Positions 7,722 to 60,311 of a DNA stretch of 64,000 bases are shown in pieces. Numbering within the stretch: the stretch's first letter is position 1; every line of letters begins with the position of its first letter. Source of the stretch: an uncultured delta proteobacterium (GTDB lineage Bacteria > Desulfobacterota > Desulfobacteria > Desulfobacterales > JAHEIW01); contig CAVPNL010000003.1 in the NCBI GenBank assembly GCA_963706575.1, forward strand, positions 288,001-352,000. Direction: 5' to 3'. A program made the position numbers and the translations under genes. Below the pieces are notes generated by a model, which saw nothing but the letters and a program-made list of their open reading frames with translations, was not told the origin of the DNA and searched no databases.

Positions 7722-7854
7722 AAAGTGCCTAAAGTGACTAAAATGAGCTAAAGTGCCTAAAATTTTGGTGTCGCTACGCTCCATCTTTTTTATAAAAATG
7801 ATAGAATGCCTTAACTTTAGGCACTTTAGATCACTTTAGGCATTTTAGGCATTT
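7722..7854. repeat. Family-A tandem-repeat hairpin element, copy A1
   Basis: ~42 bp inverted arms of CTAAA(A/G)TG-type 9-10 nt units; loop shared with A2. Confidence 0.9.
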
Positions 7855-7904
7855 CTGGAAATAGACTGGATCGGGTATTACGCACCAAATTGAATACTCT
7901 CAGG

Positions 7905-8966
7905 TTATGTATAGATCACATTAAGCGGAATTGGAGGATATTTCGATACCCCCGGCTTCGGAAGGATGTGCTGCTCGCCGACTGTTAGCCAGTGCAGGTC
8001 TGGTTTAATTTCTCGCAACTTGCCGTCTTCAGGTTCACGGGCATGGTATGTTCGGGTATAGCTTGCCTGAAAAATGCAAACCCCGCATCTTTTCTCCCGC
8101 GCCACGACATAATTCTTTTTGAAAGCCCGGAGTGATAGGCCCTGGGCTCCAGCGATTTCCTCCAGTTCCTTAAGGGAGCGTTTTATCAAAATCGCTTTGG
8201 ATTCACCCCGCTCGGAGAGACGAATCAATGCCCTGGATTCACTGCTGCCCACATATACAGTAGAGATCCCCGGAATCCGTTTAAGATACTGGGCAGCGAC
8301 GATGGCAGCCGTTCGTCTTCCACCCACCATCACCGGTAGTCCATAATACTCAAAAAACTTCTTTTGGATATCTTCAGCATATTTATCGCCTTTTTCGAAG
8401 ATATCCTTAGATATATATCTCAAGCTTCGGGCCATGTCTTCTGCTGCTTCGGTTATCGGCCAATCAATCCGTACATGAAAATGGGTAAGCCCATATCGAT
8501 TCTTCGCCAGTCTGGCTGAATCTCCCTGTATCAGCAGGGCATAATCCACCGGCAGCAATATTTTTAAAAAATTTCTAAAATAGATGGATTCCAGATATTT
8601 CCAGTTGCGGTCAAACTTATCTGATAGGGGTAGTGTTTTTGAGCGCAAAAGATTCTTCTTGGTGGTTTTATTGAGATCGAAAAACCGGATGTACTTTTTA
8701 TGCTCCGGCAGCACCGAATCTTCGACAAAGATGACAAGAAAGGTGTTCTGGGATTCGTATTCCTGATCTGGAATGCGCCCGCGAGGTTTTAACTCCCGCT
8801 TTTCAACAAATGGGAAGCGGTTTTGGCGAGAAATAAAATTATGATATGAATCAATCAGTGCATATTGCAGTAAAAATTGATCCAGTTCATCCCTTAGCAG
8901 TTCGTAATATGAGCGCCTTAGCTTTTCAACCTGACTAAGTTCTTCCCTATATTTCCAGTGAGCCAA
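7905..8966 (-). CDS. Hypothetical protein (353 aa)
   Basis: Long ORF, TTG start with AGGAG RBS; no recognised domain. Confidence 0.75.
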   Translation of the reverse strand: MAHWKYREELSQVEKLRRSYYELLRDELDQFLLQYALIDSYHNFISRQNRFPFVEKRELKPRGRIPDQEYESQNTFLVIFVEDSVLPEHKKYIRFFDLNKTTKKNLLRSKTLPLSDKFDRNWKYLESIYFRNFLKILLPVDYALLIQGDSARLAKNRYGLTHFHVRIDWPITEAAEDMARSLRYISKDIFEKGDKYAEDIQKKFFEYYGLPVMVGGRRTAAIVAAQYLKRIPGISTVYVGSSESRALIRLSERGESKAILIKRSLKELEEIAGAQGLSLRAFKKNYVVAREKRCGVCIFQASYTRTYHAREPEDGKLREIKPDLHWLTVGEQHILPKPGVSKYPPIPLNVIYT

Positions 8967-9114
8967 AATTTTCTCCTAATCTAAATATGTGAATCCCTGC
9001 TTTTCATTCATTTTCATGCAAGATTCAGGCATTATGTTATCATGAATTATTATAGAGTTAAAGCAGGAAAATCTTCCGGCTGGTCTGTTGAATGGGATAG
9101 TAGGACTTAATAAT

Positions 9115-9420
9115 TAGAACCCATCTCAAAGATATATATAACGCCCAACGCTACAGTTTTAAATCTATAAAAAGTGCTTACAACACAAAATGAGCTAAAA
9201 TTAAAAATGATCTAAAATGTCTAAAATTATGGTCGAGCTAGCGCAGCACAGGCGTTTGCGCCATGTGGCGCTCCATCTTTTATTATAAAGATGACAGAAT
9301 TCCTCAACTTTAGGCATTTTAGCTCATTTTAGTCATTTTAGGCACTTGTAACTTTCCAGCACCTTTGGAACTTTTTTCTCTGTCTTCCAAGATGAACTGC
9401 TAATTTTGAGATAGCTTTTA
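9115..9420. mobile_element. MITE-like element (TAGAACCCATCTCAAA termini) containing nested family-A copy A2 (9187-9347)
   Basis: Imperfect 17 bp terminal inverted repeat (13/17), same TIR as 16281-16426. Confidence 0.6.
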
Positions 9421-9421
9421 G

Positions 9422-10129
9422 TTATTTATTTTCTATCTTTTCGATCCAAAGATATATTTTTTCACGATAGCCATAGCACAGTAATGCTAAAATCAGGCAG
9501 GCCGCAATCACAACCCCGAGCAGAACATAATTTTGTTCATATAGGAATCCACCCTGCAGGCTTAAGGCAAATGTACCCGGCATTCTGCCAATACCGGCCA
9601 GCAAAATAAAAATCTTCATCGGCAAGGTGCTTACACCAAGCGCCAGGCACAGGTAGTCTTTGGGAAACCCCGGAAATAAAAACAGGATAAACAATACAAT
9701 GATCCCCTGGCGTTTGACCAGTCCATCAATTTTTTGAAACTGGTGCGCCGGAATCCGTTTCCGCACATACCGCTCACCCACAAAACGACCAATCACAAAA
9801 TTCAACCAGGAACCCACTGTCAGACCGATACTGGAATAGATAAAACCCGCCAGCGTCCCAAACAAATAACCGCCAATAAATCCCGTCGCTTCGCCCGGCA
9901 CGGGCGCGAAAATGACCTGAAGAATCTGAATCATCATGAAAACCGGCGGCGCGCTGGTTCCAAAGGAGGAAATAAGGAGTCTGATTTTTTCCCTATCGGA
10001 AAACAATCGGTATAAATCGGTGATCTTTTCCCAGATCGGAATCCGAAACCAGAACACCACAAATCCAATTACAATCAGCGCCAAAATAATGAGGATCTTA
10101 AATTTATTTGCAGTGGCTTTTGGGGGCAT
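9422..10129 (-). CDS. TVP38/TMEM64 (DedA-like) membrane protein
   Basis: LQVIFAPVPGE, GYLFG, LFPGFPKD, GRMPG. Confidence 0.85.
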   Translation of the reverse strand: MPPKATANKFKILIILALIVIGFVVFWFRIPIWEKITDLYRLFSDREKIRLLISSFGTSAPPVFMMIQILQVIFAPVPGEATGFIGGYLFGTLAGFIYSSIGLTVGSWLNFVIGRFVGERYVRKRIPAHQFQKIDGLVKRQGIIVLFILFLFPGFPKDYLCLALGVSTLPMKIFILLAGIGRMPGTFALSLQGGFLYEQNYVLLGVVIAACLILALLCYGYREKIYLWIEKIENK

Positions 10130-11326: not shown

Positions 11327-11418
11327 GGTTTCAGGTTTCGGGTGTCAGGTGTCAGAATGGATCGAGCTGAAAATCTATCGGATCAGATGCTATACACTAA
11401 AACCTGACACCTGAAACC
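11327..11418. repeat. Family-B heptamer hairpin element (GGTGTCA/GGTTTCA .. CCTGACA/CCTGAAA)
   Basis: Inverted arms of 7-nt units between gpsA and radC. Confidence 0.8.
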
Positions 11419-11453
11419 TTTATTTCAACGAAACGCTTAAAGCGCAACCCGCC

Positions 11454-14948: not shown

Positions 14949-15146
14949 GTTATTCGTTATTGGTTATTGGTCATTATGTAAACGACTCATGTTTCATATG
15001 TCACGTGTCAGAGGACAGAAGACAGATGATTAAAACTGGAAAATGAAGCATTCTATCCGACTTCTGTTTTCTGTTCTCAGTCATCTGTTTACTGACACCT
15101 GACATCTGAAACCTGACACCTCCCACTAGCTTACACCTGACACCTA
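14949..15146. repeat. Composite/nested tandem-repeat hairpin elements upstream of gyrA
   Basis: GTTATT(C/G) arm; family-B arms enclosing GACAGA..TCTG arms. Confidence 0.75.
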
Positions 15147-15158
15147 AAATCACTTTGC

Positions 15159-16232: not shown

Positions 16233-16280
16233 ATTACCTCCAACTATAAAAAGTTTAACGCCATCCGTCATGACGGCCTT

Positions 16281-16426
16281 TAGAACCCATCTCAAAAATG
16301 CCTTTTGGCCCAATATCTTTGTTGGTGCCTCGTTTAAAATCCTCAACATACAATAGTATGCCTCCGGTTTTAAACTCGGCCCCGCCGCGATCTTGAACCA
16401 AAATCCTATTTTTGAGATTGGTTCTA
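16281..16426. mobile_element. 146-bp MITE-like element
   Basis: TAGAACCCATCTCAAAA / TTTTGAGATTGGTTCTA TIR (16/17), TA at both ends, internal hairpin. Confidence 0.75.
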
Positions 16427-16614
16427 ATTAAACGGGTATCCTTTGAATCAGGATACACAAGGTATAACCTAAACTGATCGTTTCAAATTTTATAAATGGG
16501 GATGCACGCTCATTCAAACGCGCCTCAACACAAAGCTGTTGCCCGTATCACACGGCTGGCCATTGCAATGATGATACACAAGAAGGGCTCTTGTAAGATT
16601 TTAGGACAGGCTTT

Positions 16615-16770: not shown

Positions 16771-16938
16771 TCGTGTTGAACCTCCTTTTCAACTAAAAAG
16801 CCTTTGGAGATAACGCCGCTCCAAACCGATGGCTTATGGGGCAAAAAAATCCAATATTTTCAAAGGGATTGACAACTCAGAATTCAACTAACTATTAGCA
16901 ATTATTAGAAAAAAAGTAAAGAAAAAAATTATAAAAAA

Positions 16939-17041
16939 GGGTTCAAGGTTCAACGTTCAGGGTTAAAGGTTAAAGAATCCGATATTGTTATAAAATCTAA
17001 CCGCTGAACCCAGAACCGCGTTATCCAGAACCTCTGAACCC
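16939..17041. repeat. Family-D heptamer hairpin element (GGTTCA .. GAACC)
   Basis: Inverted tandem arms just after the thiolase stop. Confidence 0.75.
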
Positions 17042-17053
17042 TTGACTGCTGCT

Positions 17054-18353
<1,300 letters not shown>

Positions 18354-20657: not shown

Positions 20658-22001
20658 TTATTTCCGCGCCCTGCCCTTTGGTTTACGATTTTCGCGCGGC
20701 CGGAACAGAATTCGAATGGGGGTCTTGTCCAGACCCGCCTGTGCACGGATCTGATTGATTAAAAAGCGTTTATAGGAAAAATGGACCGCTGCCGGATAGT
20801 TGACAAAGCAAACAATGGTGGGCGGCCCGGTGGTCACCTGGGTGATGTAATAAAATTTGATCGGTTTCCCGCGATGGAGCGGCGGGGGATTTTTGGCCAT
20901 TGATGTTTCCAGAATCCGATTCAGCTGTCCGGTGCCAATTCGTTGCGCGTACTGCTCGTAGACATCGTCAACCAATTTAAAGATTTTTGTCACCCGCTGG
21001 CCCGTCAGGGCCGATATGGTCATGGCGGGCGCAAAGCTTAAAAATTTGGCCTGCATCCTCAATTCATCCATGTATTTTTTTACGGTATGGGTGTCTTTTT
21101 CCAAAAGATCCCACTTGTTCAGTAAAAAGATACAACCACACCCGCGCTCAAATGCATACCCGGCAATACTGATATCCTGCTCGGTAATGCCCTCGCTGGC
21201 ATCCAGCACAATAAGCGCCACATCACAGCGATCCAGGCTCCGCAGCGCTTTGATGATGGAAAATTTTTCAATTTTCTGGTTGACTTTTCCCTTGCGGCGA
21301 ATACCGGCCGTGTCCATCAGCAGGTAGGCTTTGCCGTCCACCTGGCAGAGGGAGTCAATCGCATCCCGGGTGGTTCCCGGTCGATCGCTGACCAGATGCC
21401 GTTCCTGGCCTAATATGCGATTGATCAAAGAAGATTTGCCCACATTGGGCCGTCCAACCACCGCCAGGCCGATAGTGCCTTCAGCCGCCTCCCGGCCCCG
21501 TCCTTTATCAATTGCAGCAAGCCCGGCAACCAGGGCATCGAGAAAATCGGTTATCCCGTAACGATGCTCAGCCGATATCGGAAACAGCGGTTCAATACCC
21601 AGGCTGTAAAAATCCGACACCTGGGTTTCCTGTTCGGCGCCATCTATTTTGTTCACGGCGTAAAAGACCGGCTTGTCGGTGATGCGCAGGAGCTCGATAA
21701 TATCCCGGTCAAACGGGGAAATACCCCCTTTGCCGTCCAGCAGCAAAATGATCACATCGGCATCTTCAATGGCCTGGAGAACCTGGAAGCGAATTCCGTC
21801 AGAAAACGCGTCTCCTTCGGTAAAGCCACCGGTATCCACGAGGGTGAATTCAACTTCGTTCCAGGTTGCGTCTCCGTAATGACGGTCACGGGTAACCCCG
21901 GGAAAATCATCCACCAATGCATCTCTGGTGTGGGTGACCCGATTGAAAAGAGTGGATTTACCGACATTGGGACGGCCGACAATAGCAACAATGGGTTTCA
22001 T
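20658..22001 (-). CDS. der: Ribosome biogenesis GTPase Der
   Basis: Two GRPNVGKS G-domains plus KH-like C-terminus. Confidence 0.97.
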
Positions 22002-22015
22002 AATAAACTCTATTG

Positions 22016-22249
22016 AAATAAAAATTAAAATGAGCGTTTCAAATTTTAAAAAATGGGGAAACCTTCTTATTTTTAAGAAATTCTATCGTTTTTACTTTTA
22101 AAATTTGAAACCCTGCGGGATTGTCGATCTTATCGCATCTACGGCGTCAGATGCCGTCCGCCGTCTTGCATAGTTAACTATAGCGGAACGACATCTTCCT
22201 TGTAGCTGCGGCAACCTCGACAATCGCTCAATTTAGTTAAGATTTATTT
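22016..22249. repeat. Multi-hairpin intergenic element
   Basis: Perfect 16 bp IR 22036-51/22096-111; second hairpin 22119-22225; outer imperfect IR. Confidence 0.65.
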
Positions 22250-22823
22250 TCTTTTTGATTCGTTAACGAAAACAACGCCAATGGGCTACATTTATGGCTT
22301 ATTGCACTAAATTGCAAGAATTTCATATGGGGAATAAAAGGACCGTTTTATAAACAGGTAATAATGATGTTTTGAAATTGTCAGATTATCGCTGATTCTG
22401 TAAAGCGGTGTTAAAAGGGATAGGGGGCATTCGTTTATAGCAGTGAGCACAAAAATCAGCTTTGTGCATATCGCTTATCAGATATCACGGTATTTTAGTC
22501 AGGGCTGATTTCAAATCTCTGTTGGCGTAATCTGCAATTTTGAGACTTGAAAATATTTGGGATTACCTGAAGATATATGTAATAAATTGCGGTTGTCTCT
22601 TTATAGCCGCAATATATAATTTTAAGAATTTGTGAATATCGTTTACAAATCTTAACCCTTTTATTTTTAATATTTAAAGTTTCCCGAAGGAATCAGTTCG
22701 GGGATAATTTGCGCAGAAATTGTTTCTTCCCACTTAATTAAGATTACACCATCTCTATCTATGTAATATGTAACATCATGCTTTTTCCCATCAGAGCCGG
22801 GTATTGAATCTTAATAAATAGCT

Positions 22824-23330
22824 TTATTTTTCCTTTAGATTGTTAACCTCCAGTAGTTTATTAACTTCCATCAATCTATGTGCTTTCTCTCTCTTAAGTT
22901 CAATATTGACTCTATCAGTATTAATATATCTCAGAGCCTCAGTAGGGCATATCCTTACGCATGTTGGATCACCATCACATTGATTACAAACTACTGCTTT
23001 TCCTAGCTTACGATCTACAAAACAAGCACCAAATGGACATGCGTAGCTACAAGCACTACAACCTATACATTTTCGATCATCAATTGCCAAGGAACCAGTT
23101 TCAGAATTCCTTTGGATAGCCTGATTTGGACAAACATGCATACACATTGCGGTTTCGCATTGCATACATGTCGATGGTACAACGTTAATTCGTCCATCTT
23201 TTTCCTTAATAATCGCCCTGATTCGAGAACGCTCGGGGTTACATTCACTTGAATTTCGTAATGAGCATGCAACTTCACACATTCGACAAGCAGTACATTT
23301 TGAGCTATCTATAATTACTACAAACCCCAT
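22824..23330 (-). CDS. 4Fe-4S dicluster protein (AOR-associated, DmsB-like)
   Basis: Four CxxC-type cluster motifs. Confidence 0.9.
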   Translation of the reverse strand: MGFVVIIDSSKCTACRMCEVACSLRNSSECNPERSRIRAIIKEKDGRINVVPSTCMQCETAMCMHVCPNQAIQRNSETGSLAIDDRKCIGCSACSYACPFGACFVDRKLGKAVVCNQCDGDPTCVRICPTEALRYINTDRVNIELKREKAHRLMEVNKLLEVNNLKEK

Positions 23331-23489
23331 GATCGTCTCCTTTTCACTTTTAAAATAGCACTGTCATATTCTTCAGGCATAGTAAAAAATAGCGAATTTT
23401 GAATCTTCATATGAAATTAGATTAAATCATATTCTATATCTTTGTAATTTGAAATTTTCGGCATAGGTTTGGCTGCACATGATATATAA

Positions 23490-25466
23490 TCACTTATTGT
23501 TAGAAAAGGGGGTAATCTTTTCTAAATCCATTGCGACATCGCCAAGATTTAGTTTTTGCAGTGTTTTAATAGTTGGAAATCCTGTTCGAATATCCCAGCC
23601 CATGCCTTTATAATAATCATCCTTCATCTTTTCAAATTTATTAATATCCAATTCATCATCCGGCCAGGTTCCGGGTAACTTTCTATTAAACAAGCGTTTT
23701 GGCAATGTATCATGATCCCTGCTGATGCCCTCTCTAATAACAAAAGCCCTTTCTTGGGCTGCTACTCTCGAAGAAGCTTCTAAAAGATCATCAATGCTTA
23801 TTTTACATCCTTGGCCCGCGGAAATTACTTCTGACTGAAATTCAATACCTAATCCCATATTTAACATGATTGTATTCCATCTGCATTGTCCCAACATATC
23901 ACTAACGGCACTCAATTTATGTGCTAATGCAGCCAAGCCTCCTCTTCCAGTATAATCGAATTGTCCAATTGAGATATTTTCTAAAAAATTCTCGGCTTCT
24001 TTTACCGCTTCTTTTACTATGGACATAGCCTTTTTGCCTTCCCAACTGTTCGGGTTGGCTAAACTGGTCATACCTGAACCTTTGTTTATACCTAACTTAT
24101 CGAATGATGCATAACGACTTCGAAATTCATCCCCGCCTCTAGGATTAACTGCAGAACCGATAGCTCTTGATCGCCAATTAATGACATTCGTGCCGCCCAT
24201 AGTTAATCCTTTTATATTCAGAGCTTCCTTAGGATTACCACCCACCTTATCTTTAGCTTCTTGAACAGAAGAGCCCAAAATTTCGCCGAATCCCTCCTTC
24301 TTACAAATTTTATCCATCATTATATTTATTGCGGTTCCATCACCCCAATTAAGTTCAATTCCGTCTAAATCCCGCTTTGTAATTTTCCCATTCTCATAAA
24401 GTTCCATTGCCCATGCCAGCATTCTTGCTGCAGTGATTACATCAAGTCCCATTTTCTGGCACTTTAGAGAAAATTCGTACCATGACCTAAAATTTGAGTC
24501 TTTTAACACCCACATGGTGGCCTGGTAAAAGTTACAGTTTGCCATTAACGGACCAAAATCAGGAATGTCATAATGATCAACACATCTGACCTGGCAGTTG
24601 AAACAACCAATTTTCCCGTCACCAACGCTGCTCTTATGCTTTTGCCAGAATGGCTCATGTCCATTCTTTAATTCTTTCTGCTTTTCCCATTCACTTGACT
24701 CATAATTTCCTAAAACATTTGCCCATGCTCCACCTTCGTTTTCTACTACCGGCTTTGTCTCGGCTCCAGATATCAGCGGTTTCTGTTTTTCTAAAGCTTG
24801 AAGGCACAGTTCTAAGAATCTACTGGAATCAAAAATAGAAATCCCTTTCGTTCCTCTAACTGCTAAAGCCTTAAGATTTTTTGATCCCATGACAGCCCCC
24901 ATTCCGGTTCTGCCGGCAGAATTTCCTAATCTACTTTGAATCGTTGCATAAACAACTTGGTTCTCACCAGCAGGGCCAATGCAAGCCACTTGTATATCAG
25001 GATCGGATAATGAATTTCTAATGGCTCCAGGAGTTTGGTAGCAATCCATGCCCCATAAATCTTGGGCGCTTCTTATTTGTATATCATCATTATCAATAGC
25101 AATATATACTGGCTCCTTTGATTTTCCCTCAACGACTAAACTATCAAAGCCCGCGTACTTAAGTTCTGGTCCCCAAAATCCTCCCATACTCGACATTCCG
25201 AGTAGCCCATTAGCAGGCGACTTAGCAGCAATTTCGGTACGACCTGACCCAGGTACCATAGTTCCTGTCAAAGGGCCAACGCTGAAAATTAGTTTGTTTT
25301 CAGGATCTAATGGTTTTATGTCGGGTGTTAGTTCCTTATACATAATACGTGAATTAAAACCTCGACCACCGATCCATTGCGAAACATATTTTGAGCTTGG
25401 CTCCATAGTTATCTTTTTTGATGTCAAGTTGACCCTAAGAATATTTCCGCCACGCAAATAACTCAT
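23490..25466 (-). CDS. Aldehyde:ferredoxin oxidoreductase family (tungsten) enzyme
   Basis: GGRG, GPLTGT, IGPAGEN, GRTGMGAVMGSKNLKA, GCFNC..RC, MGLD. Confidence 0.9.
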   Translation of the reverse strand: MSYLRGGNILRVNLTSKKITMEPSSKYVSQWIGGRGFNSRIMYKELTPDIKPLDPENKLIFSVGPLTGTMVPGSGRTEIAAKSPANGLLGMSSMGGFWGPELKYAGFDSLVVEGKSKEPVYIAIDNDDIQIRSAQDLWGMDCYQTPGAIRNSLSDPDIQVACIGPAGENQVVYATIQSRLGNSAGRTGMGAVMGSKNLKALAVRGTKGISIFDSSRFLELCLQALEKQKPLISGAETKPVVENEGGAWANVLGNYESSEWEKQKELKNGHEPFWQKHKSSVGDGKIGCFNCQVRCVDHYDIPDFGPLMANCNFYQATMWVLKDSNFRSWYEFSLKCQKMGLDVITAARMLAWAMELYENGKITKRDLDGIELNWGDGTAINIMMDKICKKEGFGEILGSSVQEAKDKVGGNPKEALNIKGLTMGGTNVINWRSRAIGSAVNPRGGDEFRSRYASFDKLGINKGSGMTSLANPNSWEGKKAMSIVKEAVKEAENFLENISIGQFDYTGRGGLAALAHKLSAVSDMLGQCRWNTIMLNMGLGIEFQSEVISAGQGCKISIDDLLEASSRVAAQERAFVIREGISRDHDTLPKRLFNRKLPGTWPDDELDINKFEKMKDDYYKGMGWDIRTGFPTIKTLQKLNLGDVAMDLEKITPFSNNK

Positions 25467-26224
25467 TGTAATTTCCTCTCTTCGTCCAAAATTAATCGAG
25501 CAATTTTCAGCAAAGATAATTCATTGAACCTCAACTTTTCATTAATCATAATAAATTTAGGAGTCGGAAAATTTTTTATTTTTTGACAAGTAATGAATTG
25601 ATGCATTTGTACCGTTAATGAGAATATTTCATCACTATTCCATATTCATCTTGGGATGCAATACACAGGCCTCTTCAGAGCTCCAGACTACTTGCCATAG
25701 TCCTCAAAACGTCCGATTGTATTATCCATATGCAAATTATCACAGTTTTGCAAGATGTCAAAATGCAGGATGCGTGCATGAAGCTAATTTTATGAAGTGT
25801 TCGAATAATTTGAGATTAGAGTAAGGAAGGTGAATTTTTACAAAAGGTTAGATGTATAGCCGTTATATAAAATCGAACATATTTTTATATTATATTTTGT
25901 TTTATTAATTGCTCTAAAAAAGCCAAATAGCTTTTCCAAGTAAAAATTACCGATTAACAGAAAGAAAAAACACTAATTTACCTCAATAAAGCGCCGAAAT
26001 GGTTTTGGCTTAACATCACTGCCCTTATGGGGAAACAGCTATAAGGATTGGGGCTTTGCAAATAGGTTGGATATCTGCTACATATTGAATCTGTCATTAT
26101 CAGTAATTTCACAAGTCCTTTACTTCTTGGGATATTCCTTTTATCTTACTTTACCTCCAGGGATCATTGACAAAATTATCCAAATTTTTCCTAAGTAATC
26201 GTACGAAGTTGATGAGGACCAACT

Positions 26225-28246
26225 ATGTGGAAACGCGCTGTTTGCACTAAGGATTGTCCGGACACATGCGGTCTGTTGGCCGAGGTCAAGGACGGGCGGA
26301 TCGTAACCGTCAAGGGTGACCCGGATCACCCGTTCACTGACGGCTTTATCTGCAAGAAAGCCAGCCACTTTCCCGAACACGTCCACTCGCCAAAACGCAT
26401 CACCACCCCGCTCAGGCGGACCGGCCCCAAAGGTGCCGGCAAATTCGAACCGATCGATTGGGGCAAGGCCTTGGATGAAGTGGCCTCCTGGATCAAGTCC
26501 GTCTCCTCTGAATTCGGCCCTGAGGCCATCCTGCCATACTCCTATGGTGGACACATGGGCTTAGTCCACCGCAACGCTGGTCACGCCTTTTTCAATCGAT
26601 TGGGAGCCAGCTGCCTGAAGTACACCATCTGCAGTCCGGCGGCCACGGCCGGATACGAAGCCAGTCTGGGTAGTGGACCCAGCACCGAAATCCAATCGGT
26701 TTCCCAGTCAGATTACATAATTATTTGGGGCAGTAACACCCTGACCACCAACGTTCATGCCTGGCCCCATTTTAACATGGCCCGGAAGACCGGGGCTAAG
26801 CTAGTGGTCATCGATCCCTACCGCAATCGGACGGCCAAACGGGCCGATGTGCACCTGATGGTCAAACCTGGCACCGATGCCGCCCTGGCCCTTGCCATGA
26901 TACAGGTGCTGATTGACCGTGATCTGATCGATCGCGATTTCATCGCCCACAAAACAGTGGGCTTTGAGGAATTGAAGGTCAGGGCTGCAAAGTACACCCC
27001 GGCCCGGGCGGCCGATATCTGTGGTTTGTCCGAGGAGATGATAACCCGATTGGCCGAGGATTATGGACGGGCCAGGGCACCTTACATCCGAACCGGATGG
27101 GGGCCGGCCCGCCAGCTAAAAGGGGCCATGGCGATGCGGACCATCGCCCTGTTGCCCGCCCTGGTTGGAGCTTTTGATAAGCCGGGTGGAGGGATCACCC
27201 GCATGTTGGGTGGTGCGCCCAGCGACCTGAGGCGTTTGACACGATCGGATTTGCGTCCGCCCAGCACGCGGACTGTCAACATGGTTGAACTGGGGAACGC
27301 TCTGACCAGACTGGATGATCCGCCAATCAAACTGCTTTACGTCTATCTGTCCAACCCGGCCGTGGTGGCTCCGCAGTCCCGCGAGGTATTGACCGGATTG
27401 GCTCGTGAAGACCTGTTCGTAGTTGTTCAGGAGATGTTCCCAACCGACACTACCAGCTACGCCGATATCGTTCTGCCTGGGGCCAGTTTTCTAGAGGCCA
27501 CTGATCTTTACCGGGCCTATGGCCACAATTATATCCAAATGGCACAACCGGTCATTCCACCAGTGGGACAGAGCCGCTCCACCCTGACCATCTTCCAAGA
27601 TCTGGCGGCTCGTATCGGTTTTAAAGACGACGTCTTTTCCCTTCACGAGATGGACTTCATTGAAGGTTTTTTAAGTGAAGAGTCTCCCTATCTGGAGGGG
27701 GTCGATTTTGAGGCTTTAAAGTCCGGCCGGCCGGTGAGGCTAAACATACCGTCCAACCCTTATGCCGATGGATTCTCCACACCGTCAGGCAAAGTGGAAT
27801 TCTACTCGCAGGCGATGGCCGATCAGGGTCTCGATCCCCTTCCCGACGGTCAGCCGTTAAGGGATCCAAATGGCGGGGGTAGCTACAGCCTGGAATTCAT
27901 AACCCCACCCCACCATTTCTTCCTCAACTCGGCCTTCAACGAGATAGACAGACTAAGGGAAAGAGCTGGTCGGGCCCGGGTGATGATCCATCCCGAAACC
28001 GCCCGAATCAGGGGTATAGCCGACGGCGATCCAGTGAGGGTGTTCAATAACCGTGGAGAGTGCAGCTTTCTGGCCCAGGTGACCGATGACACCCAGGCCG
28101 GGCTTTTAGTGGCCGAGGGCCTGCACTGGCCCAGCCTTTCGCCCGGCGGCGGCGCTAACCAACTGACCAGTCAGCGGCTCACCGACATGGGTGAGACCTG
28201 TGCCTTCCATTGCAACTTGGTTGAAGTTCAACCACAGGGTAATTAA
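26225..28246 (+). CDS. Molybdopterin (bis-MGD) oxidoreductase family protein
   Basis: CTKDCPDTC..C, WGSN, VIDP, ADIVLP, C-terminal Mo-binding domain. Confidence 0.9.
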   Translation: MWKRAVCTKDCPDTCGLLAEVKDGRIVTVKGDPDHPFTDGFICKKASHFPEHVHSPKRITTPLRRTGPKGAGKFEPIDWGKALDEVASWIKSVSSEFGPEAILPYSYGGHMGLVHRNAGHAFFNRLGASCLKYTICSPAATAGYEASLGSGPSTEIQSVSQSDYIIIWGSNTLTTNVHAWPHFNMARKTGAKLVVIDPYRNRTAKRADVHLMVKPGTDAALALAMIQVLIDRDLIDRDFIAHKTVGFEELKVRAAKYTPARAADICGLSEEMITRLAEDYGRARAPYIRTGWGPARQLKGAMAMRTIALLPALVGAFDKPGGGITRMLGGAPSDLRRLTRSDLRPPSTRTVNMVELGNALTRLDDPPIKLLYVYLSNPAVVAPQSREVLTGLAREDLFVVVQEMFPTDTTSYADIVLPGASFLEATDLYRAYGHNYIQMAQPVIPPVGQSRSTLTIFQDLAARIGFKDDVFSLHEMDFIEGFLSEESPYLEGVDFEALKSGRPVRLNIPSNPYADGFSTPSGKVEFYSQAMADQGLDPLPDGQPLRDPNGGGSYSLEFITPPHHFFLNSAFNEIDRLRERAGRARVMIHPETARIRGIADGDPVRVFNNRGECSFLAQVTDDTQAGLLVAEGLHWPSLSPGGGANQLTSQRLTDMGETCAFHCNLVEVQPQGN

Positions 28247-28658
28247 GATACCAACAAATCAACCGGTATTCATAATTTTGGTCAGCTCAGACATCAACAG
28301 TGCACCCTAAGTGCCGGAGCACCAGACTGGATAATGCATTAGCTAAAGTAATCAATTACGGATAGAGATGTTGTATGGAGAATTTAGCACTTTGATATGA
28401 TAAAAATCACAATAATTGATTATTAGATCGGATTCTATAGATTAATCGGGACAAAACTAAGAGTGAAAAGCTTTTATTGGTTGAACTACTGGAATAGATG
28501 AAAAGAATATCAAAAAATATGGTGGTCTCATGTTGTATTAAGTCAATAATAAGGGAGCCTTCACAGCAGGTATCTGACCACCCTTTCCTTGGCAAGTGTC
28601 AAGACAAGTTCGTTTTCTCTCAATTTGTCAGTGTCTTATAATATTTGATTTTTTGCTA

Positions 28659-28868
28659 TTAATCCTGAACATGGGATGTATCATTCAATTTAAGCAATTT
28701 CTTCCTTGTTTTCTCTGGAAGATCATTTAATTCAATATAGGGCTGATCCCCCCAGCCAAGAACTTCAACGGATTTTCCATCAGTCTTGGCCCAAACAAGA
28801 CCTAAACTTGGGAGAGGAATTTTGGTGTATTCAGGGCTAAAGTCTCCAAATCGCTTCGGCTTAAACAT
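28659..28868 (-). CDS. Small hypothetical protein downstream of acs
   Basis: 69-aa ORF, purine-rich RBS, 24 bp after the acs stop. Confidence 0.55.
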   Translation of the reverse strand: MFKPKRFGDFSPEYTKIPLPSLGLVWAKTDGKSVEVLGWGDQPYIELNDLPEKTRKKLLKLNDTSHVQD

Positions 28869-28892
28869 GGTATTCCCTTCTTAGTACGCTTA

Positions 28893-30929
28893 CTATTTGT
28901 CTGTGACCAAATGTTTGATATCATCAACAATGTCGGGATTTGCCAATGAGGTTACATCTCCAACGTCCCTTTTATTCGATAGGTCACCGAGAACCCGTCG
29001 CATAATCTTTCCGGACCTTGTCTTCGGCATATCTTTTACGATCCATATTTTTCTCGGTTTTGCGATTTTTCCGATTGCGTCACAGACGATATCCGAAATT
29101 CTGTTAGCTAATTCATCGCTGGCCTCGAATCCAGGTTTTAAAGCAACGTACAAATCCGGTACCTTTCCCTTGATTTCGTGAGCTACAGGCACCACCGCCG
29201 CTTCTGCTACCTCCGGGACAACCAGCGCGGCCGATTCGATTTCTTTGGTTCCAAGCCGGTGTCCGGAAACATTGATGACGTCGTCAACTCGTCCTAAGAT
29301 GCGATAATATCCATCTTCGGTCTCCACTGCAGCATCACCGGCAAAATACGGCCAATCGCGCCAATCCTTGCTTTTCATGTTTTTGCAGTATTTTTTATAA
29401 TATTGAGCTATATAGCGATGGCGGTCACCCCATATGGTCTGAAAAGCACCTGGCCACGGGTTTTGAATGCAAATATTCCCAGCCTTGCCGGATCCTCTCT
29501 CAACGATATTGCCCTCTTCATCATAGATGATCGGATGAATTCCTGGCATTCCCGGACCGGCACTGCCGGGTTTCATGGGGGTTACGGCCGGAATCGTGCT
29601 GCACAAGAAACCCCCGTTTTCCGTCTGCCACCAGGTATCGACGATGGCCGCCTTGCCCTTGCCTACGACCTCGTAGTACCATTTCCAAACTTCCGGTTCG
29701 ATAGGTTCGCCGACGGTGGTCATGTGCTTGAATTTATAATCATACTTGACGGGTTCATCCGGGCCGATTTTGCGCAGAGCCCGGATGGCGGTGGGAGCGG
29801 TGTGGAAAATGTTGACATCCAGGTTCCGGGCGATTCGCCAGGGGCGCCCCGGATCTGGAAAGTTGGGCACGCCTTCGTAGACGACCGATGACGCGCAAAG
29901 TGCCAGAGGACCGTAAACAATATATGAATGTCCGGTAATCCAACCGATGTCGGCCATACACCAGTATACGTCCTCCGGGTGGATGTCCTGCACGTATTTG
30001 GATGTGCCGGCAACATAAGCGAGGTAACCACCGGTGCCGTGCTGGCAGCCTTTCGGTTTACCGGTTGTACCGCTGGTGTACATCAAAAACAGCGGGGCTT
30101 CAGCGGGCATGGGAACCGGATCGATGCGTTGACCATAGTAGTTTTTTAGAACGTCGTTTACAAAATAATCTCGACCTTTCACCATGGGTGTCTCGCTTGA
30201 ACTTTTCCCCGGATAACGCTGCCAGACAAGCACCTTATCCACTTTCTGGCCGTCCTTCTCAGCCAGCTCAACAGCAATATCTGCGTTTTCTTTGTGATTC
30301 AGCAGATTCCCGGCTCTGTAATAGGCATCCGTTGTGATGAGGACGTTACTACCGGAATCAACGATTCGATCAGCACACGCCCTCCCGCTGAATCCACCGA
30401 ACACCTCAGAATGGATAACTCCGAGACGGGCGCAAGCCAGCATGGTGATGGGAAGCTCGGCGACCATCGGCATGTGGAGAGTTACTCGATCTCCGGCTTT
30501 TAACCCCGCAAAATCCCTTAACAATGCCGCAAACTCATTTACCCGGACATAAAGTTCCTGATAAGTGATATGTTCGACTTTTTCTTCTTCGGGTTCGGGA
30601 ACAAAATGGATAGCCGTCTTGTTTTTGTTCTTGGCCAAATGACGATCCACACAATTATAACTGGCGTTGATCTTGCCCCCGACAAACCATTTCCAGCAGG
30701 GTGCATCGCTGGTATCAAGGATAGTATGCCAGTACTCATACCAGTCGAGAAGATCCGCATACTCCTTGAAACAATTGGGAAAGTTGTCCAGGCTGAATCG
30801 TTCAAAGATCCCGGGATCGGTCATATTGGCCTGGGCAATAAATTCTGACGAAGGATAATAGTATTTCTCCTCTTGCCAGTGAACAGCGATTTGTGCTTCA
30901 GATGTTTCGACAACTTCTTTTTCTGCCAT
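28893..30929 (-). CDS. acs: Acetate--CoA ligase
   Basis: YTSGTTGKPKG, DIGWITGH, DTWWQTE, PKTRSGKIMRR; start MAEKEV after AAGGAG. Confidence 0.95.
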   Translation of the reverse strand: MAEKEVVETSEAQIAVHWQEEKYYYPSSEFIAQANMTDPGIFERFSLDNFPNCFKEYADLLDWYEYWHTILDTSDAPCWKWFVGGKINASYNCVDRHLAKNKNKTAIHFVPEPEEEKVEHITYQELYVRVNEFAALLRDFAGLKAGDRVTLHMPMVAELPITMLACARLGVIHSEVFGGFSGRACADRIVDSGSNVLITTDAYYRAGNLLNHKENADIAVELAEKDGQKVDKVLVWQRYPGKSSSETPMVKGRDYFVNDVLKNYYGQRIDPVPMPAEAPLFLMYTSGTTGKPKGCQHGTGGYLAYVAGTSKYVQDIHPEDVYWCMADIGWITGHSYIVYGPLALCASSVVYEGVPNFPDPGRPWRIARNLDVNIFHTAPTAIRALRKIGPDEPVKYDYKFKHMTTVGEPIEPEVWKWYYEVVGKGKAAIVDTWWQTENGGFLCSTIPAVTPMKPGSAGPGMPGIHPIIYDEEGNIVERGSGKAGNICIQNPWPGAFQTIWGDRHRYIAQYYKKYCKNMKSKDWRDWPYFAGDAAVETEDGYYRILGRVDDVINVSGHRLGTKEIESAALVVPEVAEAAVVPVAHEIKGKVPDLYVALKPGFEASDELANRISDIVCDAIGKIAKPRKIWIVKDMPKTRSGKIMRRVLGDLSNKRDVGDVTSLANPDIVDDIKHLVTDK

Positions 30930-31122
30930 GAGTGCGCTCTCCTTGACTTGTAATCGCGTTGTTAATGAAGCCTGTAAAACCTTACTTTGTATTATAATTT
31001 TGACTCGAACCACATGCTAAAAAATAAATTAAGTGTCAATGCCGTTTCATTAAACGTTTTATAAGGCCAAAAACTTAGCAAACGAGTCAAGTTTCAATAT
31101 ATTGTGGTACAAAAAACAAACA

Positions 31123-31204
31123 GATACTGGATCCCGGTTTCTGGATACTGGATAAAATAAGGAATGCTTTCTTCTTATCTACCCAGCATCGAGCATCCGG
31201 CATC
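31123..31204. repeat. Family-E heptamer hairpin element (GATACTG .. CAGCATC)
   Basis: Inverted tandem arms. Confidence 0.75.
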
Positions 31205-31490
31205 GCTTCGCCTCACCAACGGAATATGATTCTCAGCAACTCGTCGGTTTGAGGCGAAGCTTCGCTATCAAATGGGTTTGTAGACGGTAGGTATAGTGAA
31301 ATTGTTTTAGTTTTATTCTGTGCTTACGCTGATGTTTTCTTCCGGGGCGAACTCGTTCGGTGGTTTGAGCATATATTTTTTGCCATTTGTTCGGTGCTCA
31401 CCGGACAGCAGCAGTTGTTCATTACCAACCAGCATGCCACCAAGGAAGTGCGTGATATCCTGACAAAAGGCCCAAAGGAGCAAGCAACTG

Positions 31491-35979: not shown

Positions 35980-36078
35980 ATCGAGAAAAGCGCCTCCGTT
36001 TTATATCTATCTATCTGATATATTGATATATTTCTGTTAGGGTAAAAAGACTTACCAGATAAACAAGAGCTGTGAAAA

Positions 36079-38546: not shown

Positions 38547-38779
38547 CACGAATATTCTTCCAGAGGAAAGGGACAATGATCTGAGCTTGCTTTATTCGAG
38601 CGTGAGCATCGCAAAAATAGGATAGTATGTAAAGCCGGTTGGTTTAAGTTGTTGGACAAATCAAGCTTTAATTATAGCAAATAAGTCCTTCAAAAGGCAG
38701 AGTCAATTGAACTCTAACCTGGCCCACAGGGCCAAGGTTTCCATGTTTAACTTAAAGTTGCATATAAAATCATGACAAA

Positions 38780-39550
38780 TCAGGTCGTCGCTTGATTTTC
38801 CTTTTTTCTTCCATTAGGGCAAATATAAAGACACATGCCACAGACACCAAGTGCAGATGTCTTTTTCAACTTGCTAAGATATTTGTCACACTTGAGGGCA
38901 TCAAAGCGAATTTCTCTGGGATCCTCTTCCCTAAATGGCTCACCTGTAAAGGCCTTTACAGGGCAAATGTCAACGCATTCATGACAATCACCGCAGCGTT
39001 CCTCCATCGGTTTGTTGGCAACTTTTAGAGGTGCATCAGTAAGGATGGTGCCCCAACGTACCCTTGGGCCAACTTCCGGAGTTACCAGAAGGCAGCATTT
39101 TCCAATCCATCCCAAACCTGAGAGGCGCGCGGCCATTTTGTGGGAGAAGATGCCATAAAGCTCCTCGTTATATGTATTCTCCTGGGTTGAAGGTATTGGT
39201 AGCGTTCGGTGTCCCTTGCGTTGGAGAACCCCACTTAGCCGTGACGATGTGTGATCCAGGCGCTGATTAATAACGTCGTAGGCATGATGTTTGTAATTCA
39301 TGCTTACAGGGCTTGAAAATCGGTTTGGCTGTTGGTCCACTATGGCATGAGATAGGGCGATCCCCAATGAAATAGCCCGCGGAAACTGAGTAGCTGCTTC
39401 TTCCCAAAATTTTTCGATGGACTCCTGAGCAGGTGATAAATCTGCAATTCCAAAGAAATCTGTTCCCATTTCAACAGCCAGTTTATTTAGTTTAGCTTCG
39501 AGTTCCATTTCATTCGGTTTCGTTTTCAGTAAAGCTTTCGGGTAACACAA
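38780..39550 (-). CDS. QueG-like 4Fe-4S protein (true start probably 39511)
   Basis: SHKMAA..SGLGWIGK, GPRVR, CGDCHECVDICP, CGMC..ICP. Confidence 0.8.
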   Translation of the reverse strand: MCYPKALLKTKPNEMELEAKLNKLAVEMGTDFFGIADLSPAQESIEKFWEEAATQFPRAISLGIALSHAIVDQQPNRFSSPVSMNYKHHAYDVINQRLDHTSSRLSGVLQRKGHRTLPIPSTQENTYNEELYGIFSHKMAARLSGLGWIGKCCLLVTPEVGPRVRWGTILTDAPLKVANKPMEERCGDCHECVDICPVKAFTGEPFREEDPREIRFDALKCDKYLSKLKKTSALGVCGMCLYICPNGRKKENQATT

Positions 39551-40060
39551 CTCTATTTAGACTTATTCCAGTGTGAGGTCAACACAAACTGAGATTAGCA
39601 CGGCATTCGAAAAAGTCATAATATCATACCAATCAGACTCAAATTTCTAGGGTTCAAAAGGCTGGAATCACTTGCAATAACATGAAAGTTGTGTTTTGCA
39701 CCGATTCTTGCAATATTTTTTTGATATTCAAATCCAAAACTCAAAAGATTTCCAAAAAGCACACATAAAATATGTAGTGTTCTGCCATTTTCGGATTGAG
39801 TTACAGATTGCGCATGACAAATCCATAATTTTTTAGCAGCTCGTTTTGTTTGCCTTAGTTTTAAATCTGTGAGGGCTTAAATTTTGTTGGATGTGCTAAC
39901 GCAATATGAAATTTTGGGGTTTTGTAGATTAGGTTTAAATCAGAGGAAATTTTACTGAACTGAAACTTGGGATATCCCGCTAGAAAAACAAATATCAGGT
40001 TGCCGGTGAATATCAAAGCAGGGGGTTGCAAGGTATGATTATCGGGAAAAAGAGTCAACT

Positions 40061-40843: not shown

Positions 40844-40854
40844 AGTACGTAATT

Positions 40855-41000
40855 AAATGAGCTAAAATTCAAAATGCCTAAAATGAGCTAAAATTATTGT
40901 CGAGTTCATTTTTCAACGTCTTTGCCAAATTTCTTATGATTCATAAATTTCTCTTTTAAATTTTAGGCATTTTAGATCACTTTAGATCATTTTAGGCATT
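40855..41000. repeat. Family-A copy A3 with a four-helix-bundle 5' remnant
   Basis: Arms 40855-95/40959-41000; loop reads MNHKKFGKDVEK*TRQ* on the minus strand. Confidence 0.9.
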
Positions 41001-42005: not shown

Positions 42006-42483
42006 AAATGAGCTAAAATTTAAAATGCCTAAAATGATCTAAAATTAAGGAAATATTTTATAGCGAGTATAAATGATTTACTTGCTTCCAATTGATGTAA
42101 AAAGAGCAAGTAGTTCGCTGCATTCATCATAATCGGCCTTTATTTCTTTCCATTTTAACCATTTTACTTCTGTAATTACTTCTAACCAGAATTGAGTTTC
42201 ACTTGACTCGCTTTCACATATTTTTATTTTATTTCTAAAATCCGCTTTGCTTCTTGCTCGATTGGCTTCGCGGTAATTAGCGCCAACTGAAGTTCCGGCT
42301 TTTGTAAGTTGATTTCTAACAACTCTTCCTTCTGGAGTATTGGGTAATTTGGCTGATATCTTAATTATTCTAACAGCAAATTGTCGGGTTCGTTTTTCAA
42401 GGTCTTTGGCAAATTTCTTACGACTCATGGGTTTTCTCTTAATTTTTAGGCATTTTAGCTCATTTTAGTTCATTTTAGGCATT
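42006..42483 (-). mobile_element. Family-A copy A4, full-length, carrying a four-helix-bundle gene
   Basis: Inverted tandem arms 42006-46 / 42441-83 flank the ORF. Confidence 0.8.
42078..42428 (-). CDS. Four-helix-bundle protein (23S rRNA intervening-sequence protein family)
   Basis: QLTKAGTSVGANYREA.RARS.ADF..K..I.E.E..ET.FWL. Confidence 0.92.
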   Translation of the reverse strand: MSRKKFAKDLEKRTRQFAVRIIKISAKLPNTPEGRVVRNQLTKAGTSVGANYREANRARSKADFRNKIKICESESSETQFWLEVITEVKWLKWKEIKADYDECSELLALFTSIGSK

Positions 42484-49381: not shown

Positions 49382-49444
49382 TTTTAGCTGAAATTAAAGT
49401 TCCTCAACAGATTTTTTGTGCTTCTTAAGATTAACCCCTTTAAT

Positions 49445-49521
49445 AATCACGAAAACACGAAATTAAAAAAGCACGAGATTTTTTGTTTTTCGTGTTTTTA
49501 CCTTTTCGTGCTTTCGTGATT
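49445..49521. repeat. Family-F hairpin element (CACGAAA .. TTTCGTG), copy 1
   Basis: Inverted tandem arms; second copy at 59289-59351. Confidence 0.85.
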
Positions 49522-49565
49522 AATTCTTTTTCTGCTGCTCAAGTTTAAGCAACTGTGTTTGGCCC

Positions 49566-50129: not shown

Positions 50130-50202
50130 AACTTGGCTCCTTATGATTTATTTTTAACGGCCACACCGCCCCAACCGGCCGGATATGTCTATGAAATTTT
50201 AC

Positions 50203-50333
50203 TGGAGAGACGGAGTACTTAAGATTTCGGAATGCAGATTGCGGATTTCGTATTTCGAATGTGCGATAGGTTTGATATTTAAATCTAAAATCCGCAATCT
50301 AAAATCCGCAATTAATTTTGCTCCATTACTCCA
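50203..50333. repeat. Nested hairpin elements (GGAGT/ACTCC outer; GATTTCG/AATCCGC inner 50223-50312)
   Basis: Two sets of inverted tandem arms. Confidence 0.75.
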
Positions 50334-50347
50334 TGGAAAATTCAGAA

Positions 50348-51247: not shown

Positions 51248-51376
51248 ATAATTATCAGAACAAATTTTGATTCCCACTATGACTAATAACGGATAGCAAA
51301 TAACGAATAACCAAGGGCTATTTTAGCATAAATCCGATTATTCGGCTTCATTTTTCGGGAAACGCAGGATGTGGCC

Positions 51377-54508: not shown

Positions 54509-54682
54509 GTCCAGGCTCGTAGAATATAGTGTTCTATTAAGTGGTTATACCGCTTTTCATAATAAGGTTCCGAATTACGGAATTGCGGCATAAGTGGTTG
54601 TAAAAAAACGTTTGAATATCGGAACGTTTTTTTGACAGCCACTATATATCGTTGGAATTCTTTTTTTAACAAGAATTGTATA

Positions 54683-57802: not shown

Positions 57803-57890
57803 TTCACCACGAAGAGCACGAAGAACCACAAAGATAAAATAGAATTTATTAGATTTCTCCCTTTGTGTCCTTCCTGAACTTTGTGGTGAA
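57803..57890. repeat. Family-G hairpin element (CACGAAG/CACAAAG .. CTTTGTG)
   Basis: TTCACCAC..GTGGTGAA termini, ~9-nt units. Confidence 0.8.
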
Positions 57891-57940
57891 ATTTAAACTT
57901 AAAAACACATTTTTCCTCTAAATAAAGAATCGAGACTTTT

Positions 57941-59281: not shown

Positions 59282-59288
59282 TTTTTTT

Positions 59289-59351
59289 ATCACGAAAACA
59301 CGGAAATTAAAAAGCACGAAATCTTACTTTAGCCTTTCGCGCTTTCGTGAT
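59289..59351. repeat. Family-F hairpin element, copy 2
   Basis: ATCACGAAAACAC..AAAGCACGA..TTTCGTGAT. Confidence 0.8.
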
Positions 59352-59383
59352 TAATTTTTCCTGTTTGGCTCAGCCTGCCCGGC

Positions 59384-60154
59384 TTAAGATTGGAAACTTG
59401 CGATTAATGCGGCCCCTATGGCCCCGGTTACCTGGGTCTTTTGCGACACCTCAATGCCATACCCGGTTTTGTTTTCCAGAGCCTTGACCACCCCTTTGTT
59501 TTTAGCGACCCCACCGGTCATCATCAAAGGCGCTGACAGACCGATGCGACCGGCCATGGCGACCACCCGGGAGGCAATCGATTCGTGGATGCCGGCAATG
59601 ATATTTTCTCTTTTCTCTCCTTTGGAGATAAGAGAAATCACTTCTGATTCCGCAAAAACGGTACACAGGCTGCTGATTTTCGCCGGCGTGTCAGCTTCCA
59701 GCGAAACCCCGCCAAAATCATTGATATCAACTTCAAGTGCCCGGGCCATCACTTCCAGAAATCGTCCCGTACCGGCCGCACACTTATCATTCATGGCAAA
59801 ATCCTTCACGCCGCCATTTTCATCAACCACGATGGCTTTGCTGTCCTGACCGCCGATATCGATAATCGAGCGCACGGCCGGATTCAGATAATGGGCACCA
59901 ACAGCATGGCAGGTGATCTCGGTAACCGCCTTGTCGGCGAAGACAACACTTTTGCGACCGTAACCGGTTGCAATAATTTTATCTACGGCGGACGCTTTTA
60001 TCCCCAGATCGGCGATAATGTCTTGATAGACTTTCGTCCCGGCGTCCTGCGCATTATAGCCGGTTAACATCACCCGGTCGGAAATCAGGTTGCCGTCCTT
60101 AACAACAGCCGCCTTGGTCGTTATCGAACCCACATCGATCCCCACTGTAATCAT
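59384..60154 (-). CDS. 2-hydroxyacyl-CoA dehydratase activator (HgdC/BcrA-D type ATPase)
   Basis: GIDVGS, TGYGR, DIGGQDSK, MNDKCAAGTGRF, CTVFAESE. Confidence 0.92.
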   Translation of the reverse strand: MITVGIDVGSITTKAAVVKDGNLISDRVMLTGYNAQDAGTKVYQDIIADLGIKASAVDKIIATGYGRKSVVFADKAVTEITCHAVGAHYLNPAVRSIIDIGGQDSKAIVVDENGGVKDFAMNDKCAAGTGRFLEVMARALEVDINDFGGVSLEADTPAKISSLCTVFAESEVISLISKGEKRENIIAGIHESIASRVVAMAGRIGLSAPLMMTGGVAKNKGVVKALENKTGYGIEVSQKTQVTGAIGAALIASFQS

Positions 60155-60182
60155 ACCTTCACCTCACGTGTACCCAATCATA

Positions 60183-60311
60183 TGGCATAGCGCATAGTGC
60201 AGGCGCATGGTGTTAAAAAAAGATTATTTGAAAGAAAAGTGCATTGATTGATAGCAACTCTCGCAGTCAACATTTTTTTGCGCTATGCCCCATGCCCCAT
60301 GCGCTATGCCA
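60183..60311. repeat. Family-J heptamer hairpin element (GCATAGC .. GCTATGC/CCCATGC)
   Basis: TGGCATAGCGCAT / ATGCGCTATGCCA termini. Confidence 0.85.

Follow-up and report, generated by a model that had tools for sequence, protein, structure and literature searches.

Introduction

In Coxiella burnetii, the intervening sequence (IVS) within 23S rRNA carries two to four tandem heptamers before its open reading frame (ORF), and RNase III cuts the stem at the first of these (Warrier et al., 2016, PMC4990558). Heptamers of Xanthomonas and Nostoc form 70-75 inverted pairs per genome and were interpreted as G-quadruplex formers (Rehm et al., 2015, PMC4692102). The subject here is a similar arrangement in a 64,000-nt stretch of DNA (the window: positions 288,001 to 352,000 of contig CAVPNL010000003.1, assembly GCA_963706575.1) from an uncultured delta proteobacterium of the Desulfobacterales: intergenic hairpins whose inverted arms are arrays of a short tandem word, including cassettes with a small “cargo” gene of family PF05635 (four-helix bundle) or PF13366 (GxxExxY) between the arms.

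Better-known systems offer partial parallels. Repetitive extragenic palindromes (REP, REPIN) with their associated transposases (RAYT), and the miniature transposable elements with inverted repeats known as MITEs, combine an autonomous gene flanked by cognate repeats with many gene-less hairpins, and repeat and protein co-evolve; integron cassettes join a single gene to a hairpin (attC) of conserved shape and variable sequence. On the protein side, Avd is a homologous pentameric four-helix-bundle ring, all five protomers of which contact one stem-loop (PMC10053308; bioRxiv 2023.10.23.563531). PF05635 genes have also been noted inside cas operons, in a passage that does not mention arms (Zhang, 2013, PMC3936711). 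A term search of MacGregor (2015, PMC4679880) and of bioRxiv 2026.10.21.760802 met no mention of cargo, and no account of the class was found in the literature, subscription journals and supplements lying outside the coverage.

Results

Cassettes and Their Cargo Genes

The hairpins and cassettes have a common architecture and a fixed polarity, their arm word is paired with the clade of the enclosed protein, near-identical gene-less copies are dispersed, and members of one family nest inside those of another. In the complete cassette of the window, family-A arms at 42007-42483 enclose a gene for a 116-aa PF05635/TIGR02436 protein, which matches PDB 2RLD (five chains; E 3.6e-18). In the fold of minimum energy its two arms are base-paired (z -2.2; the centroid is weak), making this a PF05635 ORF between terminal inverted repeats able to form a stem.

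An initial annotation of the window had listed the same design with units other than those of family A, and suggested that each arm type might have its own small cargo gene. Repeat units do sit at every position it gave (Table 1), and all eleven named arm types (A plus ten) enclose a gene either in the genome holding the window (G000: 5.67 Mb, 92% complete, 6% contaminated; C-numbers are its contigs) or in a congener: nine enclose PF05635 four-helix-bundle genes, and two PF13366 GxxExxY genes. Only family A, the inner 50203 type and the 49445 type have their own cargo inside G000 itself. Words were assigned to protein clusters from word lists and printed flanks. The enclosed genes examined are all PF05635 or PF13366, but they were located by searches for those two families.

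There are eight PF05635 matches in G000 (two rows being duplicates) and four PF13366 matches, most of them between arms of different words; within the genus, PF05635 is found in 21 of 22 genomes and PF13366 in 18 of 22. Cargo runs with the upstream gene in 37 of 39 clade/site cases, and median dN/dS values of 0.07-0.32 over 25 clusters indicate purifying selection on the cargo genes. The GxxExxY cargo is predicted to be a nuclease of the PD-(D/E)XK fold with the catalytic acidic and lysine positions: an alignment-based model (pLDDT 87.7) adopts this fold, with Cas4 SSO0001 as its best structural match (E 3e-4, Z 7.9), level with restriction enzymes, and E47, D86, E96, and K98 are conserved in at least 90% of the proteins. 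No solved homologue of GxxExxY was found by sequence search.

The Arm Word Follows the Protein Clade

Flanks were taken for nearly all full-length cargo rows (108 PF05635 and 35 PF13366 rows listed, most short fragments excluded), giving 125 distinct ORFs in 37 protein clusters; 87 of 112 usable ORFs had an inverted word set. For pairs of cargo genes at different junctions, words were shared by 15/15 pairs at 80% protein identity or more and 5/15 at 60-80%, then by 6/69 and 21/262 in lower bands and 9/1495 below 30% (two of the junction identifiers represent one duplicated site). On a tree of 65 proteins, word labels changed 34 times, vs. 53 when shuffled, a difference that near-copies make easy to obtain.

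A stronger test of the pairing than this within-genus tree is the comparison across phyla. Of 540 proteins related to the window's cargo protein, the best 80 share 64-91% identity with it and come from Desulfobacterota, Planctomycetota, Bacteroidota, Calditrichota, and further groups; 66 of these 80 have family-A arms with the correct polarity. With words derived from the data, 69 of 75 usable relatives had family-A words and none of the 75 had cluster-4 words. Conversely, with one cluster-4 protein as the reference and the top 80 of its 200 metagenome relatives, family-A words appeared in 0/70 and exact cluster-4 words in 12/70, the 7-nt unit drifting with protein distance (rho -0.60, n = 65, the rows being kin). 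Arm type thus tracks cargo clade over different junctions and phyla, as would be expected from the co-phylogeny that the initial annotation had proposed looking for.

Genome-Wide Census

A strict detector, requiring an exact 6-mer twice in each arm, found 532 inverted loci in G000, against 61 mirror and 42 complement loci and 7 and 13 in shuffled sequence. These totals, which take in neither lone arms nor weak hairpins, are lower bounds; 13 locus pairs resemble assembly duplicates. In the window the detector found eight loci, vs. one mirror, no complement, and a mean of 0.12 over 50 shuffles; one of the eight is a mis-pairing into the cargo ORF.

Of 530 hairpin units, 479 grouped by word into 18 clusters, with family A making up two (about 17 families in all). 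The word was in the 5′ arm at 924 word-loci and reversed at six, although choosing words by frequency somewhat favors this result. Right-type arms upstream and left-type arms downstream of cargo were seen at L217, L251, and L349, which may be cases of reversed polarity or of a gene between two hairpins. By gene calls that are crude and miss some short genes, the 479 lie between co-directional (360), convergent (71), or divergent (43) genes or inside called genes (5), at densities of 0.58, 0.64, and 0.19 per kb of co-directional, convergent, and divergent intergenic DNA; some 8-11% of co-directional and convergent junctions carry a copy, and the hairpins may therefore also shape the processing of operon mRNAs. 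Where different families were neighbors they were nested in 14 of 14 cases, never in tandem or interleaved, with only three family pairs represented and ten of the cases coming from one pair. No loop motif common to several families was found, the enriched loop words being family-specific or inner arms; one loop 8-mer is present in 50 family-A loops.

Gene-less copies are dispersed: groups of 68, 32, and 14 loci are linked at 85% identity or more over arms and loop and show no identity in the flanks. In the window, the hairpin at 7723..7854 has a counterpart on contig C6 that matches its arms and loop at 92% identity or more but lies in unrelated flanks. In four sequencing runs, available as contigs from mixed organisms, contig joints fall at repeats.

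Turnover, Nesting, and Remnants

Of 138 comparisons of window junctions with those of congeners, 46 had a matching arm family and 42 a different one, 35 were uncalled, and 15 had a short gap; the automatic labels are noisy, though printed sequences agree in kind. Between SpoIIM and DUF58 genes, G000, G031, and G032 have the full cassette, G005 a deletion form, several others gene-less or nested family A, four another family, and G004 and G009 nothing. At one efflux-gene junction, some genomes have cluster 4 and others cluster 6, and G000 has a gene-less third family; a further junction is occupied by cluster 1 or cluster 7. No element sits in the moxR|DUF4350 overlap in any of 17 cases. The same junction may thus be tight, gene-less, nested, or cargo-bearing, with different words among congeners, rather than vertically conserved in the manner of terminators.

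In some cases gene-less forms arise by internal deletion. The 47-nt loop at 40898-40944 is left over from the 5′ end of a family-A cargo gene (91.5% identity, E 8e-15), and G003 has a 5′ + 3′ deletion form at this junction; a second loop with a cargo-gene remnant is on contig C6. By eye, the same multi-family nested composite is present at two junctions, L003 (radC|gpsA in G001) and L143 (DUF58|moxR in G031), suggesting that composites move as units.

Since arm families other than A do enclose genes and positions are not conserved as those of ordinary terminators would be, the interpretation offered in the initial annotation, a superfamily of small elements, is supported, with qualifications: only two families, both known, supply the cargo, and the class is not without precedent, because single members are already in print (the Coxiella IVS, the inverted heptamer pairs of Xanthomonas).

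Hairpins of the Window

Most of the listed units form hairpins with inverted arms, as had been claimed for all of them, while those at 14949 and 51279 are lone arms without a clear partner and the 15000/15010 and 50203 sites each consist of two families, one nested in the other. The repeats are tandem, with periods of 6-10 nt rather than the 7-9 nt first given. Spacers described as AT-rich are only slightly so (0.62 in loops vs. 0.59 in other intergenic DNA). Proximity to stop codons applies to most window examples (about 4-63 nt), the one at 31123 excepted; genome-wide, with the crude gene calls, the median distance is 39 nt, with 52% within 40 nt.

Among 12 gene-less window hairpins, ten folded better than all 200 shuffles and that at 59285 was equalled by one of 200; the composite at 14995-15140 was not significant against shuffles (z -1.3). 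The hairpins matched no Rfam family, and the window had no Rfam CRISPR match; as initially proposed, they are distinct from CRISPR repeats, consisting of head-to-tail 6-10 nt units in inverted arms and lacking a regular repeat-spacer build. Arm coordinates are given in Table 1 for five inverted pairs, those of the remaining loci being defined by self-alignment.

Table 1. Repeat-armed elements and associated features of the window.
Feature	Coordinates	Strand	Unit (position)	Inverted arms	Remarks
Family-A gene-less hairpin	7723..7854			7723-7764/7813-7854	Between convergent genes; fold z -7.6
Miniature inverted-repeat element, classical type, own terminal repeats	9115..9420				Carries family-A hairpin at 9187-9341
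Gene-less hairpin, 7-nt unit	11333..11419		CCTGACA (11327)	11333-11355/11397-11419	Cognate cargo in congeners, four-helix-bundle cluster 1
Lone left arm, 7-nt unit	14949..14977		GTTATT (14949)		Cognate cargo, four-helix-bundle cluster 6
Nested hairpins, outer 15000-type around inner 15010-type arms	14995..15147		CCTGACA (15000), GACAGA (15010)		Cognate cargo, PF05635 clusters 1 (15000) and 4 (15010)
Gene-less hairpin, 7/8-nt unit	16937..17043		GGTTCA (16939)		Cognate cargo, four-helix-bundle cluster 7
Gene-less hairpin, 7-nt unit	31123..31204		GATACTG (31123)		Cognate cargo, four-helix-bundle cluster 19 (L096, L271)
Family-A hairpin, cargo-gene remnant as loop (40898-40944)	40853..40994	-			Remnant identity in text
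Downstream family-A arm of complete cassette	42007..42045	-
Cargo gene, four-helix-bundle protein	42078..42428	-			Co-oriented with operon
Upstream family-A arm of complete cassette	42439..42483	-			At DUF58 gene end
Family-A gene-less hairpin between moxR and DUF58	43933..44048				Fold z -8.8; other families here in most congeners
Gene-less hairpin, 8/9-nt unit	49444..49522		CACGAAA (49445)	49444-49476/49490-49522	Cognate cargo, GxxExxY cluster 30, in G000 at C19:8588
Nested hairpins, outer 8-nt unit	50195..50342		GATTTCG and GGAGT (50203)		Outer cargo, PF05635 cluster 25 and related cluster 10
Inner hairpin of 50195..50342, 7-nt unit	50224-50312			50238-50267/50283-50312	Cargo, PF05635 cluster 3, in G000 at C4:480476
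Lone right arm, 14949 type	51279..51314		GTTATT (51279)		Cluster 6
Gene-less hairpin, 9-nt unit	57803..57892		CACGAAG (57803)		Cognate cargo, GxxExxY cluster 26 (L051-L053)
Gene-less hairpin, 49445 type	59286..59354		CACGAAA (59289)		Between convergent genes; cluster 30
Gene-less hairpin, 7-nt unit	60180..60314		GCATAGC (60183)	60180-60201/60293-60314	Cognate cargo, four-helix-bundle cluster 21 (L088)

Discussion

A Probable Selfish Cassette Class

These elements probably represent a selfish class of cassettes without a transposase, the gene-less hairpins being derivatives of the cassettes and the proteins likely recognizing the word of their own arms. A cassette consists of a left word-array, one promoterless-looking gene, and an inverted word-array, and could be transcribed by read-through from the upstream gene, its arms folding into a stem of 25-45 bp. 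The encoded protein, either a ring like that of Avd or a nuclease of the PD-(D/E)XK type, might bind its own word, possibly with one unit per subunit: three to five units per arm would fit a five-membered ring. Bound protein could then recruit a nuclease or the host repair machinery, with the cassette or its gene-less form being copied into stop-start junctions and also into the loops of older hairpins. Hosts may tolerate the hairpins because RNase III, which G000 encodes, would cut the stem between two genes and leave both reading frames whole, much as 23S rRNA keeps working.

The IVS of some 23S rRNA genes likely belongs to the same class. A more sweeping proposal is a possibility toward which we lean somewhat less than halfway: that of a transposase-free mobile class extending across phyla and governed by a word code, in which every small protein, whether a ring former or a nuclease, recognizes a 6-10 nt repeat of its own and multiplies its cassette or gene-less forms into junctions and the loops of rivals, with the 23S IVS and orphan heptamers as by-products and Avd as a recruited relative.

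Several results weigh against a selfish cassette class. Measured against same-family shuffles, neither 479 hairpins nor 45 cassettes were enriched in target-site duplications (p 0.35 and 0.65), with the reservation that element ends are degenerate and recent or very short duplications could escape detection; one suggestive 8-nt direct repeat was seen at L102 against the empty G000 site. Wobble pairs had no transcribed-strand bias (466 vs. 425, p 0.18), which lends no support to selection acting on an RNA stem. Several abundant G000 words (68, 41, and 27 units) had no matching cargo in this 92%-complete genome, and strict pairing in trans would therefore need past or transient cargo. Clear cargo remnants were found in only two of 479 units, other loop matches being short or to arm sequence; cargo-rich G019 and G021 had no gene-less hairpin in 80 and 38 kb; and some family-A copies ride at many sites in an ordinary miniature element of about 310 nt with its own terminal repeats. 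No catalytic site is known in the four-helix-bundle proteins. Finally, the largest cargo cluster (17 copies) is confined to a single junction with weak arms and is inherited vertically; like GxxExxY cluster 27, which has weak or no arms, one junction, and no catalytic aspartate, it looks like domestication. Armless GxxExxY genes with an altered catalytic motif at one junction (G000 C9:54311-54702, L066, L077, L078, L140) are possibly domesticated copies as well.

Other Explanations

Some of these same results are what would be expected if the cassettes were passive, word and gene co-varying through linkage and spreading by miniature transposons, arm-to-arm recombination, gene conversion, and junction exchange between relatives. 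Linkage alone would produce the co-phylogeny, the lack of detectable target duplication and the words without cargo would need no further account, and carriers are at hand, the miniature element of about 310 nt having common relatives of 148 and 196 nt. We nevertheless think this unlikely: most hairpins examined have no outer repeats of the miniature-element type, and linkage explains neither the persistence of intact, polar arms across phyla amid changing flanks nor the strong purifying selection on the protein. The miniature family (window 16280-16427 and 9115-9420) has about 50 copies in G000, mostly of 148 or 196 nt, and two longer spans, C13:13432 (1337 nt) and C17:29623 (1036 nt), might hold a transposase.

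A host regulatory system, in which the hairpins would be RNase III or stability sites tuning operon mRNAs, the small proteins their readers, and turnover an adaptation, seems a good deal less probable still. Junctions re-occupied by different families and a threefold lower density per kb in divergent regions could be read this way, as could the conservation of repeat sites between two Xanthomonas species described by Rehm et al. (PMC4692102). The junctions are tight in some congeners, however, the sense strand has no wobble bias, cargo is patchy and often broken, and four of 12 order-level genomes lack both cargo families. In 323 kb from those four the detector found three inverted loci and six mirror loci, vs. 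15 inverted and 1 mirror in 404 kb from the eight with cargo, of which G019 and G021 had none.

That the hairpins are ordinary terminators, or products of local slippage or template switching arising independently at each site, is very improbable despite their position behind stop codons and good folding, given that a T-tract follows the stem in 53 of 360 cases in the sense direction vs. 89 antisense, that hairpins lie inside operons whose genes abut in relatives, and that loops are common to distant sites, polarity is fixed, and cargo is word-specific.

Within the selfish cassette class, retro-mobility by a host reverse transcriptase (RT) was considered and set aside as a minor variant only: the single G000 RT looks group-II-intron-like by eye, and a search for PF00078 in G007 (97% complete), a genome with cargo and hairpins, gave no match.

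Implications

New here are a word-to-clade table that is full for one genus, the finding that the word drifts with protein distance, and replacement at the same junction. Three orphans are joined: bacterial heptamer-type repeats, the origin of the ORF-bearing 23S IVS, and the functionless families PF05635 and PF13366. The word-to-clade table offers a direct and cheap test, a comparison of binding to cognate and non-cognate words. If the pairing holds there, the proteins would be a naturally occurring collection of sequence-specific binders that differ in their words, and would provide a mobility route without a known transposase.

Other Observations in the Window

Another hairpin, at 54541-54646, has longer repeated units. 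Contigs from many organisms cover it to a summed depth of about 660 over two sediment runs, so it may represent one more abundant family. From the DUF58 operon to gyrA is about 10-12 kb in G007, G010, G012, G013, and G015, vs. 28 kb here; the extra stretch at about 22000-40000, with its AT-rich genes and an IS1595-type transposase that is split (32778-33761), is likely an island. The thiolase (17054-18341) and penicillin-binding-protein (5215-7177) genes are each split over two frames, possibly through assembly errors, and DUF58 reads on into the arm; an apparent thiolase split in congeners is an artefact of the frame-shifted query. At the window edge, an Rfam PYLIS_2 match (63939-64000, minus strand) hints at a pyrrolysine-containing methyltransferase gene just beyond.

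Relation to Described Systems

The single G000 RT (C4:301693) is far from all PF05635 genes, rather than beside one as with Avd, and, unlike the Avd of diversity-generating retroelements, the cassettes with printed flanks have no RT gene, template, or variable repeat beside them. Integron cassettes differ in that here the gene is inside the loop and copies are scattered singly, with no integrase or array. Arms in REP/REPIN-RAYT systems and MITEs are 20-40 nt palindromes where these are tandem short words, and the cargo genes examined here, located by searches for PF05635 and PF13366, are not HUH or DDE transposases, nor was target duplication found.

The inverted pairs of Xanthomonas and Nostoc are likewise degenerate heptamers of about four units, intergenic, near the upstream stop, and rare between divergent genes; they differ in having one word per genome, no cargo gene mentioned in the sections describing them, and sites mostly kept between two species, where those described here turn over (Rehm et al., PMC4692102). 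In the Coxiella IVS, the same protein family lies between terminal inverted repeats, sense to the transcript, and the heptamers are identical to two units at window 15010. Unlike the IVS, the cassettes here are between protein genes, the G000 23S gene (C4:131249-134293) containing none of the eight PF05635 matches, and they come with many words, cargo of a second family, and gene-less copies by the hundred. By analogy, the class may work like an ORF-bearing IVS set in mRNA junctions combined with an autonomous/gene-less pair of the REP/RAYT kind.

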